IMG/VR virus record: IMGVR_UViG_2663763339_000005
Location: 1-45,686 of that record
Direction: 5' to 3' (one strand)
DNA length: 45,686 nt
DNA from: a virus
Taxonomy: Duplodnaviria > Heunggongvirae > Uroviricota > Caudoviricetes
Part shown: positions 4,109-6,916 of the stretch, piece by piece
Layout: each line of letters starts with the position of its first letter
Numbering within the stretch: position 1 is the first letter of the stretch
Translations under genes and position numbers: made by a program
The notes under the pieces: generated by a model
Told to the model about the DNA's origin: nothing
What the model saw: the letters and a program-made list of their open reading frames with translations, nothing else
Databases searched by the model: none

Positions 4109-4405
4109 TTATACCTCTGAATCAATATCAACCTGGTGGTGAGCAATGGTTTCAACCATGTACCGGATGTGTTCTGCCATGCGCTCCTGAAACTCAACAT
4201 CGTCATCAAACGCACGGGTAATGGCTTTTTTGCTGGCCCCGTGGCGTTGCAAATGATCGATGCATAGCGATTCAAACAGGTGCTGGGGCAGGCCTTTTTC
4301 AATGTCGTCTGCCAGTTCTGCCTCTTTCTCTTCACGGGCGATCTGCTGGTAGTAACGCGCCCAGCTCTGAGCCTCAAGACGATCCTGAATGTAATAAGCG
4401 TTCAT
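4109..4405 (-). CDS. gam: Gam (RecBCD inhibitor), short form
   Basis: 98 aa matching lambda GamS ([57 protein letters not shown]...). Confidence 0.93.
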
Positions 4406-4480
4406 GGCTGAACTCCTGAAAATGGCTGTGAAAATATCGCCCGCGAAATGCCAGGCTGATTAGGAAAACAGGAAAGGGGA

Positions 4481-4771
4481 TTAGCGATTCAGGCCGTTAC
4501 CGCGTCCGTCGAGAAAAACTTCCACGAGCAAATCACGGGTATAAGTGCGCTCGATGCCGCGATGCAGATAAAGCCGTCCGCGTAAATTAGCTGATGCAGT
4601 CCAGGTACCATCTTTGTGTTTGACCAGCATTCCTGGCATGACCGCGCCGCGATTAACGGTCTGCGTTCCGTAATGTTGATGAACCATAAAAACTCCTGCC
4701 CGTAAGCTGGGCTGCTGAACATATAGAGACTTCTGCGCGTATTCAGGCGGTGGATGGCCGCCGGTTGTCAT
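4481..4771 (-). CDS. Hypothetical protein in the kil/cIII position of the pL operon
   Basis: 96-aa ORF immediately downstream (in transcription) of the putative pL promoter; no confident family match. Confidence 0.35.
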
Positions 4772-4964
4772 AACTAAGCCGCCTCGTTGAAGCGACTAAG
4801 GTATGAAATGTTGAGTTGATTTCAGCTGGTCACACCGACGTTCACGCGTCCGTTTCACCCCTCGCACTCCCCGAAGCCTGCTGAAATTCAAACTGCGGAT
4901 CTAAGCGGTCATCGCAACGGTGAATCAGGTGGTTGCCGTATCGTTGTGTTGTTGCGATGAACTT

Positions 4965-4993
4965 ATTTAAAACTATAGTTGTTTTACCGTCAA
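4965..4993 (-). promoter_or_regulatory. Putative early-left promoter pL with overlapping operators
   Basis: On minus strand TTGACG-17 nt-TTAAAT; palindromes AACTATAGTT (4971-4980) and AACAACAAAAGTTGTT (4991-5007) overlap the -35 region and spacer; mirrors pR architecture. Confidence 0.5.
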
Positions 4994-5134
4994 CAACAAA
5001 AGTTGTTTTATTGGTTGTTTTAGATATAACTGGTTGTATTTAGGATGGATTTATTTTGTGACTTGAATCGCATAGCGATAACTGAAGCGAGGTTATGGTG
5101 GTTTTTTTAACGGTGTGTGTGATGAGGGGAGGGC

Positions 5135-5165
5135 AAAAGAAAACCCGGCACGGTGACCGGGATTC
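5135..5165 (-). terminator. Rho-independent terminator downstream of repressor gene
   Basis: Minus-strand hairpin CCCGGTCACCGTGCCGGG followed by TTTTCTTTT. Confidence 0.6.
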
Positions 5166-5282
5166 TTACGCCGTTAGGTAAAGATATTATTGCGGTGGCT
5201 TAATATTACTACCTAGAGCAAAGATAGGAATTAGTTCTTTACTGAATGAGCACAATGCCCAGTTGATAATTTTTAATTGGTA

Positions 5283-5972
5283 CTACCCATGCTTCCTATA
5301 TGTCTGCGGCATGCTCCCAATAACCTTACCGAAGATGAACACCCGGTTCATCTCGTCTTTCTCGATCGGGTCCCACGGTGAGTAGCTTTTGTTATCAGAG
5401 ATGACCAGCAGCTTATCCTTCATCATTTGCAGGCGCTTTACATGGGCTGTGTCGTCGTACAGAAACGCATAGATACCATCACCGTCGAAAGATTTAACTG
5501 TGATATCAACGAACAGCAGATCACCTGGTTCGATCGTTCCTGACATGCTGTCACCACGCACGTTAATGATGCGGATATTTTCCGCCTTCCTACCATCGAA
5601 CATATGACGAGCATCGTCAAACGAGTACTCAACCGAGCGTAGAACTTCTACAAACTCACGGTTGATGACTCCCGGCCCAGCACTGACTTCTATATCAAGA
5701 ACGTCAATCTTGAAGTATTTGGAATGGCTGACAGTTGATTGTATTGGTTGCACTGTACTGTCTGACATATTTCCAACGCCAGAAGATAACCATTCTGCGC
5801 GCACACCCAAAGCGTTCGCGATCTCCACGATTTTAGTTGTTTGATTAGCTTTCCCTGTTTCGATTTTCTGAATAGCAGCTTGGCTAACCCCGACCAAATC
5901 CCCAAGCGCCTTTTGTGTAAGGCCTCGCGCTAATCTGGCTTCTTTAAGTCTTTCTGAGAGTGTTGTTTTCAT
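5283..5972 (-). CDS. cI-like prophage repressor (HTH_XRE + LexA-like S24 peptidase domain)
   Basis: ORF 5283..6038; start at internal Met MKTTLSERLKEARLARGLTQKALGDLVGVSQAAIQKIE (HTH); C-terminal domain with GDSM (Ser) and VKRL (Lys) autocleavage motifs; divergent from cro-like gene. Confidence 0.85.
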   Translation of the reverse strand: MKTTLSERLKEARLARGLTQKALGDLVGVSQAAIQKIETGKANQTTKIVEIANALGVRAEWLSSGVGNMSDSTVQPIQSTVSHSKYFKIDVLDIEVSAGPGVINREFVEVLRSVEYSFDDARHMFDGRKAENIRIINVRGDSMSGTIEPGDLLFVDITVKSFDGDGIYAFLYDDTAHVKRLQMMKDKLLVISDNKSYSPWDPIEKDEMNRVFIFGKVIGSMPQTYRKHG

Positions 5973-6014
5973 AGTCCAAATGTACAACCAAGGTTTTATT
6001 TCATCAAACGAAAA

Positions 6015-6048
6015 TGGTTGTTGACTAAAAACAACCATAGTTTTAATC
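6015..6048 (+). promoter_or_regulatory. Putative early-right promoter pR with operator palindrome
   Basis: TTGACT(6020-6025)-17 nt-TAATCT(6043-6048); palindrome GGTTGTTGACTAAAAACAACC overlaps -35; sits between divergent repressor and cro-like genes. Confidence 0.55.
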
Positions 6049-6076
6049 TTGATTCAAATTAACCACGGAGGTTGTT

Positions 6077-6307
6077 ATGAACCCAGCTATCAAAACAGCG
6101 ATCAATATCGTTGGTTCACAAAAGAAACTGGGCGCTGCTTGCGAAGTTTCACAGCAGGCCGTCTATAAGTGGCTTCACAACAAAGCAAAGGTATCCCCTG
6201 AACATGTCGGCAGCATTGTTACGGCTACTGGTGGAGTAGTGAAGGCATACCAGATTCGCCCGGATCTTCCGAAGTTGTTTCCACACACCGAAAAGAACGC
6301 AGCTTAA
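6077..6307 (+). CDS. Cro/YdaS-like small HTH regulator
   Basis: 76 aa, first gene of rightward operon opposite the repressor; GSQKKLGAACEVSQQAVYKW HTH resembles YdaS/Cro family. Confidence 0.75.
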   Translation: MNPAIKTAINIVGSQKKLGAACEVSQQAVYKWLHNKAKVSPEHVGSIVTATGGVVKAYQIRPDLPKLFPHTEKNAA

Positions 6308-6376
6308 ATTTCCATTTCACGCTCTTTAACAATAAGCAATCAACTTAACAGTCAATTCAAACTAAAGGAGTCAATT

Positions 6377-6916
6377 ATGCAACCACTTACATACCAACAG
6401 ACTAGCGGATTTAGCCCGACTGCGGTGATAAATCGTTCTCAAACAAAACAGGTGCCAGGCCACGAAAAAATCCGTGATGCCGTCCGCGCCTGGTCGGCTG
6501 AAGATAATCAGGATGTCGTTGCCGCACTCATTGTGAATGAGTATCGAGCACAGGGCGGCGGCACTATCGATTTTTCTGATGATGTCAGTCGTGCACGCCA
6601 GAAGCTGTTCCGCTTTCTCGATAACAAATTCGATTCTGAAAAATACCGAAATAACGTGCGTGAACTGACTCCAGCAATTCTGGCAGTACTACCGCTGAAA
6701 TATCGCGGCCACCTGGTTGAGCAGGATAGCTTCATGGCTCGGCTGGCTGAAATGGAAAAGGAACTCAGTGAGGCAAAACAGGCTGTCATTCTCAACGCAC
6801 CACGCCACCAGAAACTGAAGGAAATTAGTGAAGGTATTGTGTCGATGTTTCGTGTGGACCCAGATCTGGCTGGTCCATTGATGGCGATGGTTACTACCAT
6901 GCTGGGGGCGATATGA
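6377..6916 (+). CDS. YdaT-like regulatory protein in the cII position
   Basis: 179 aa following cro-like gene; resembles Rac-prophage YdaT family by position and composition (recalled, not searched). Confidence 0.4.
   Translation: MQPLTYQQTSGFSPTAVINRSQTKQVPGHEKIRDAVRAWSAEDNQDVVAALIVNEYRAQGGGTIDFSDDVSRARQKLFRFLDNKFDSEKYRNNVRELTPAILAVLPLKYRGHLVEQDSFMARLAEMEKELSEAKQAVILNAPRHQKLKEISEGIVSMFRVDPDLAGPLMAMVTTMLGAI

Follow-up and report, generated by a model that had tools for sequence, protein, structure and literature searches.

A predicted immunity switch with 14-bp operators in a lambda-like phage of Escherichia coli

Which sites, read by which proteins, would set the immunity specificity of a lambda-like phage whose operators differ from those of lambda? 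The question is raised by positions 4965-6048 of a 45,686-nt stretch of DNA, analysed here as a whole and called the window. The earlier note had proposed a non-lambda immunity type at this locus, with a cI-like repressor and operators mirrored at pL and pR. The window is an intact lambdoid phage or prophage, and the region is the lysis/lysogeny (immunity) control switch of a lambda-like E. coli phage, ordinary in kind. We consider it highly probable that this switch works through a cI repressor, combining a 434-like helix-turn-helix with a LexA-like S24 domain, and a small Cro, both of which most likely bind 14-bp dyads.

The phage backbone and the two regulators

Positions 4780-6320 share 99.6% identity with Escherichia phage PhiR34_1 and 99.5% with phage Turner. 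The gene order runs from int through exo, bet, gam and kil to pL/OL, a terminator, cI, OR, cro, a cII-like gene, O, P, ren, emrE-like and ybcK genes, and on to Q, the lysis genes and lambda-like head and tail genes. The window thus shares with lambda the flanking gam, bet, exo, O, P, ren and Q genes and the virion module. It differs from lambda in having a YdaT-family protein gene at the cII position (found by domain search), a YdaS-family gene at cro, and no N gene downstream of pL. The earlier note's claim of a lambda-like backbone is correct as regards the virion, replication, recombination and Q genes, but not as regards N, which is missing between pL and kil.

The pL leader (4772-4958, 187 nt) runs directly into kil (4481-4771, PHROG 294). 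There is no N-like gene between pL and kil, and none is annotated anywhere in PhiR34_1. Because N is missing after pL and a 10-bp inverted repeat (4909-4918 / 4951-4960) is present, we considered an antitermination RNA like the put sites of HK022; this candidate was not supported, as the 187-nt fold had z = 0.00 against shuffles. With 4772-4966 as query, a distant blastn search gave matches in this phage group alone, apart from 37 nt matched in HK225, and no HK022 homology, and an Rfam scan of 4300-6600 gave only a chance microRNA match. Between two immunity types, the leader sequence is 95-99% conserved. At the place expected for a nutR, just past the end of cro, is CGCTCTTTAACAA (6320-6332), which closely resembles boxA, an antitermination element; it is not followed by a convincing boxB hairpin. 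The element may not be a conserved one, since PhiR30_1 and the Klebsiella phage have a far shorter interval between cro and cII.

The identification of cI as a repressor with an S24 autocleavage domain is borne out. The protein matches Pfam HTH_3 in its N-terminal domain (49.2 bits, cut-off 23) and Peptidase_S24 in its C-terminal domain (67.3 bits, cut-off 23.3), and its translation contains an Ala98-Gly99 site and a Ser/Lys dyad in the contexts G-D-S142-M and V-K179-R-L; self-cleavage itself is predicted. The recognition helix reads S30-Q-A-A-I-Q-K36 (VSQAAIQKIETG). The start at 5972 is backed by the relatives, all of which begin MKTTL or MKKTL. A 251-aa version starting at 6038, as annotated in the GenBank records of PhiR34_1 and PhiR5_1, would begin inside OR1, and the relatives favour the 229-aa start.

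The Cro-like protein matches Pfam PF15943 at 62 bits and PHROG 35. Its helix and that of cI (VSQQAVYKW and VSQAAIQKI) both contain S-Q-x-A-x-x-K, and cI and Cro hold key helix residues in common within each immunity type. These common residues suggest that Cro uses the same sites as cI.

Table 1. Predicted features of the control region (positions in the window; promoter elements are given with their coordinates).
Feature	Position	Strand	Sequence or elements	Remarks
Predicted pL	4965-4993	-	-35 TTGACG (4993-4988), 17 nt, -10 TTAAAT (4970-4965)	start near 4958
Predicted OL1	4969-4982		AAAACTATAGTTGT; reverse complement (minus strand) ACAACTATAGTTTT	in pL spacer; exact match to the dyad pattern
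Predicted OL2	4993-5006		ACAACAAAAGTTGT	adjoins pL -35; exact match to the dyad pattern
Candidate OL3	5024-5037		ACAACCAGTTATAT (minus strand)	half-consensus, a single good half-site; centre 31 bp from OL2
Intrinsic-terminator-like hairpin and T run	5144-5161	-		end of cI transcription unit
cI repressor	5283-5972	-		229 aa; HTH_3 N-terminal domain and S24 C-terminal domain
Predicted pRM	5979-6007	-	-35 TTGATG (6007-6002), 17 nt, -10 TACATT (5984-5979)	6 nt to cI ATG
Predicted OR3	5984-5997		ACAACCAAGGTTTT	over pRM spacer and -10
Predicted OR2	6008-6021		ACGAAAATGGTTGT	adjoins pRM -35; one-base overlap with pR -35
Predicted pR	6021-6049	+	-35 TTGACT (6021-6026), 17 nt, -10 TAATCT (6044-6049)	start near 6056
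Predicted OR1	6031-6044		ACAACCATAGTTTT	in pR spacer
Operator-like sequence	6062-6075		ACCACGGAGGTTGT	over cro ribosome-binding site; 31 bp from OR1
Cro-like repressor	6077-6307	+		76 aa; YdaS / P22-Cro family; helix V-S-Q-Q-A-V-Y-K-W

Predicted operators and promoters

An unbiased dyad-symmetry scan, together with the repeat families, indicated units of 14 bp, and the predicted operator unit is the dyad A(C/A)AAC-N4-GTT(G/T)T. Across the 45.7 kb the dyad AMAACNNNNGTTKT has four matches, all inside the two control regions; the mean in shuffled sequences was 0.21, and none of 100 shuffles reached four. Counted on both strands, the window contains 38 copies of the hexamer AACAAC; shuffles averaged 26.5, and 2 of 100 reached 38. 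Five of these copies fall in 4948-5019 and four in 5962-6076, where the window-wide density predicts about 0.06 and 0.1.

Three dyads, separated by roughly two helical turns, lie between the divergent cI and cro genes and overlap pR and pRM, a tripartite operator layout. Their centres (5990.5, 6014.5 and 6037.5) put OR3 and OR2 24 bp apart and OR2 and OR1 23 bp apart. The left half-site of OR2 is degenerate, and this degeneracy is itself kept across genera, OR2 being essentially invariant in all relatives. A second set of the same specificity is present at pL as OL1 and OL2, 24 bp apart from centre to centre; OL1 is identical to OR1 at 13 of 14 bases. A canonical OL3 was sought 23-24 bp from OL2, and no match was found there. 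The half-consensus site listed in Table 1 sits inside a patch of about 95 bp that differs between immunity types; its ACAACCA half is conserved in four lineages (L005, L008, L009 and L012). We assign it as OL3 tentatively, because its partner half-site is poor in every lineage.

Six other lineages carry an identical recognition helix and allowed these sites to be compared: two from Klebsiella and one each from Kosakonia, Enterobacter, Symbiopectobacterium and Providencia, with 62-84% identity in the N-terminal domain (62% in Klebsiella phage ST101-KPC2phi6.1; 65-84% in the prophages of Kosakonia, Enterobacter, Klebsiella grimontii, Symbiopectobacterium and Providencia). The three OR sites occur at the same offsets in all six lineages, and OL1 and OL2 are 24 bp apart in all four whose OL lay within the DNA compared. 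OL1 is invariant in four phages of this immunity type and is present in four more distant lineages. Among the 31 sites tabulated from seven lineages, the N4 spacing never varies. The 62 half-sites give the consensus A1 (62/62), C2 (44, with A in 18), A3 (55), A4 (62/62), C5 (55), Y6 and A7; the seven without C5 are all OR2 left halves. In an ungapped alignment of six OR regions (the window and five lineages), contact positions had 97.8% column identity and 26 of 30 were invariant, compared with 81% at site centres, 85% in spacers and 70-79% in the remainder.

The AACAAC/GTTGTT half-sites described in the earlier note are therefore to be shortened by one base. ACAAC/GTTGT half-sites do overlap both pL and pR, but the flanking base lies outside the core, because it is A in 30 and T in 29 of the 62 half-sites.

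Just upstream of cro, the sequence at 6062-6075 has two mismatches to the pattern in the window itself and at most one in L005, L008, L009 and L010. Its equivalent in L012 is an exact match (AAAACCTCGGTTGT, i.e. ACAACCGAGGTTTT), and it is absent in L011. This could be a fourth operator over the cro ribosome-binding site, although the ribosome-binding site alone could explain its conservation. Two other resemblances were set aside. An operator look-alike inside cI (5827-5840, ACGATTTTAGTTGT) is a by-product of the Q-T-T-K-I-V codons, and its DNA is not conserved in relatives. A third copy of AACAAC near pL (5014-5019) is not conserved in the Klebsiella phage and is altered in PhiR47_2; it is probably no site.

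A generic sigma-70 scan called neither pL nor pR because both -10 hexamers are weak, and we place these predicted promoters by their position and by their conservation in relatives. The pL -10 equivalent is TTTAAT at the same position in lineage L009, and the pR -10 equivalents in relatives are TATTCT, TAATAT or TATTAT, also in the same place. Homology to phages of the other immunity type resumes near 4958, within a base or two of the predicted pL +1. The near identity of the pL and pR spacers claimed earlier was confirmed: the cores of the two promoters form a 19-nt inverted repeat that is 95% complementary (4967-4985 / 6028-6046).

OR3 and the geometry of pRM, absent from the earlier note, are added here. 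In six of six relatives pRM retains TTGnnn-17-TAnnTT with a gap of 6-7 nt to the ATG. Since this spacing is kept, and the gap itself diverges in sequence among relatives and has no Shine-Dalgarno sequence, the pRM transcript from which cI is translated, like that of lambda, is probably leaderless. With the predicted +1 at 5972, the centres of OR3, OR2 and OR1 would lie at about -18.5, -42.5 and -65.5. Lambda operator centres lie at about -19, -42 and -66 relative to the cI start.

The terminator hairpin is conserved in relatives whatever cargo genes sit between cI and the hairpin. In the window this slot (5162-5282, from the cI stop to the terminator) is empty; it is the positional equivalent of rexAB, which lambda carries between cI and the terminator upstream of OL. 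Close relatives fill it with HipA/HipD, GevT/GevA, a putative lipoprotein or other genes, and the terminator and OL are still conserved. Opposite the terminator region, inspection by eye found a possible 28-codon ORF on the plus strand (5096-5182, MVVFLTVCVMRGGQKKTRHGDRDSYAVR). GAGG stands only 2 nt upstream of its ATG, and nothing nearby looks like a convincing promoter; the ORF is unlikely to be a gene.

Specificity relative to lambda, 434 and a second immunity type

In lambda and in the window alike, three operators separate the divergent promoters pRM and pR; OR1 and OR2 overlap pR, and OR3 overlaps pRM. Both also have a leaderless cI start, which in the window is predicted. The cI N-terminal domain belongs to a different HTH subfamily, and the specificity is, as had been proposed, not that of lambda, whose operators are 17 bp long and of different sequence. 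The nearest characterised system, which the earlier note had overlooked, is phage 434. Among solved structures the best match to the cI N-terminal domain is that of the 434 repressor (E = 7e-10), followed by 434 Cro.

In phage 434, OR and OL each comprise three sites of 14 bp, whose outer 4+4 bases are conserved (PMC1636474). The operators annotated in its genome are ACAAGAAAGTTTGT, ACAAGATACATTGT, ACAAGAAAAACTGT, ACAAGGAAGATTGT, ACAATAAATATTGT and ACAAACTCCATTGT. As in the window, these are dyads that start with ACAA and end with TTGT, three of them at OR with 22-24 bp spacing, and the repressor has a LexA-like S24 C-terminal domain. We therefore weighed whether the module is effectively imm434, each repressor recognising the operators of the other, so that there would be no separate immunity type. 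Besides the structural kinship, this reading draws on OL2, which fits the 434 consensus ACAA-N6-TTGT exactly, on the other four strong sites, which are one base off, and on the OL2-OL3 distance, which is 31 bp in both. The details of recognition argue the other way. Identity to the 434 repressor is just 38% over the N-terminal domain and 29% over the whole protein, and of the 434 helix-3 residues Q28, Q29, S30, E32 and Q33 the window keeps only Q28 (Q29A, S30A, E32Q, Q33K); by hand alignment, 434 Arg43 is Thr. C occupies position 5 in 55 of 62 half-sites but in none of the twelve 434 half-sites, which have G, T or A there. Position 2, an invariant C in 434, is A in 18 of 62 (0 of 12 in 434), and of the five strong sites, three contain the resulting AAAAC half. 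The Cro proteins, too, are unrelated: BLASTP gave no alignment at E <= 100 between the YdaS/P22-Cro family protein of the window and 434 Cro. OR1 lies in the pR spacer in the window and downstream of the pR -10 in 434, and the cI start is apparently leaderless in the window, whereas that of 434 has an annotated ribosome-binding site. The window thus has N-terminal homology to imm434 but neither its full set of helix-3 contacts, its operator set nor a 434-type Cro, and we consider identity with imm434 improbable.

The link between helix and half-site can be followed in phages that share almost everything else. PhiR30_1 and 4A7 (Bievrevirus) have the same phage backbone and operator layout as the window and an almost identical cI C-terminal domain; over this domain, the terminator, the pL leader and cII, DNA identity to the window is 90-98%. 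Their cI N-terminal domain, in contrast, is only 51-53% identical, their helices read VAQPTIWRL in cI and VAQPTVWRW in Cro, and their operators are of an ATACGC/ATAGC type (ATACGC-NN-GCGTAT-like) rather than the ACAAC type. In a genome scan, 18 further loci with the helix VAQPTIWRL or VAQPTIWRI had no ACAAC-type site. A Pseudoalteromonas relative with the helix VSQVAVMKI has sites of the form A(C/T)AAC-N4-GTT(G/A)T. The recognition helix is linked to the half-site sequence by covariation.

Divergence from PhiR30_1 and 4A7 is confined to two patches, at about 4958-5055 and 5840-6375. The junction at 5840 falls inside the DNA-binding coding region of cI, near codon 45 and well upstream of the hinge, and the other, at 6376, is at the start of the cII-like gene. 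Because the first junction lies within the N-terminal coding region, the heteroimmune phages have the C-terminal domain in common. The patch boundaries show that specificity has been swapped as two small patches.

The three palindromes quoted in the earlier note, AACAACAAAAGTTGTT (4992-5007), GGTTGTTGACTAAAAACAACC (6016-6036) and AACTATAGTT (4971-4980), are present at those positions, as are the pL and pR hexamers. The first is OL2 and the last is the core of OL1, but GGTTGTTGACTAAAAACAACC (GGTTGTT-N7-AACAACC) is no site: it spans the pR -35 and is made up of the half-sites on either side, the right one of OR2 and the left one of OR1. The functional units could instead be such larger, outward-facing palindromes, GTTGTT-N7/8-AACAAC, as exemplified by this 21-bp sequence; its 9-bp arms are conserved in relatives, and OL has a similar outward arrangement, GTTGTTTTACCGTCAACAAC. 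Their gap, however, differs in length between OR (7 bp) and OL (8 bp) and varies in sequence among closely related phages, whereas the inward N4 is constant in every tabulated site. OR3 is a complete inward dyad without an outward partner, and the homologous 434 repressor binds 14-bp inward dyads. We regard outward units as slightly less probable still than identity with imm434, and retain the 14-bp dyad as the predicted operator. That the clustering of AACAAC is a compositional accident of A+T-rich intergenic DNA without regulatory meaning is scarcely credible, for although the bare hexamer is only modestly above shuffles window-wide, all dyad matches lie in control regions, the sites are kept across genera while spacers drift, and they are replaced wholesale when the recognition helix changes.

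The proposed switch and its distribution

By analogy with lambda and 434, repressor dimers would fill OR1 and OL1 and then, cooperatively, the weaker OR2 and OL2, blocking pR and pL. By the same analogy, pRM would be stimulated by a dimer bound at OR2, centred some 42.5 bp before the predicted leaderless start of cI, and shut off when OR3 is occupied. RecA-stimulated self-cleavage at Ala98-Gly99 would lead to prophage induction, and commitment to lytic growth would come from the action of Cro on these operators. We infer binding, promoter starts, cooperativity and activation here, the last two from the lambda-style geometry; where the sites lie, how they are spaced and conserved, and how they covary with the helix are observations.

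We used a 637-bp module (5740-6376), comprising the cI N-terminal domain, OR and cro, as a query to assess how widespread this switch is. Of 5,426 complete E. coli genomes, 1,524 (28%, about a quarter) carry the module, in 1,728 copies that are nearly all at least 99% identical. Some genomes hold two to four copies, with four the maximum; many strains therefore carry at least two prophages or remnants with the same immunity specificity. By comparison, the cI N-terminal domain and operators were found at high identity in only six phage records. A literature search found no description of these operators or this switch, nor any data on binding, mapped transcripts or immunity for this type of phage, a result to be read with the thin coverage of subscription journals in mind, where absence is not proof. 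The immunity type is common, yet apparently uncharacterised, although the kind of system is well understood.

Exact boundaries of operators, promoters and module are now given for a very common E. coli prophage immunity type, clinical lineages included. Their main value is for annotation and the design of experiments; the general understanding of how such switches work is unchanged. The parallel with 434, combined with the difference at position 5, leads to a specific, testable prediction of the residues that determine specificity: the G of the C5·G pair might be read by Lys36, which corresponds to Gln33 of 434. We put forward, as a tentative possibility that we think rather less likely to be right than wrong, that the module is a natural, re-targeted cousin of 434. 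A few helix-3 changes, notably Gln33 to Lys, would have made C·G the pair recognised at position 5 of the half-site and produced a heteroimmune specificity that is now among the commonest lambdoid types in E. coli, perhaps with a fourth operator added over the cro ribosome-binding site. If this is true, the phage would offer a tractable natural system for studying the evolution of repressor-operator specificity and of superinfection-immunity networks.
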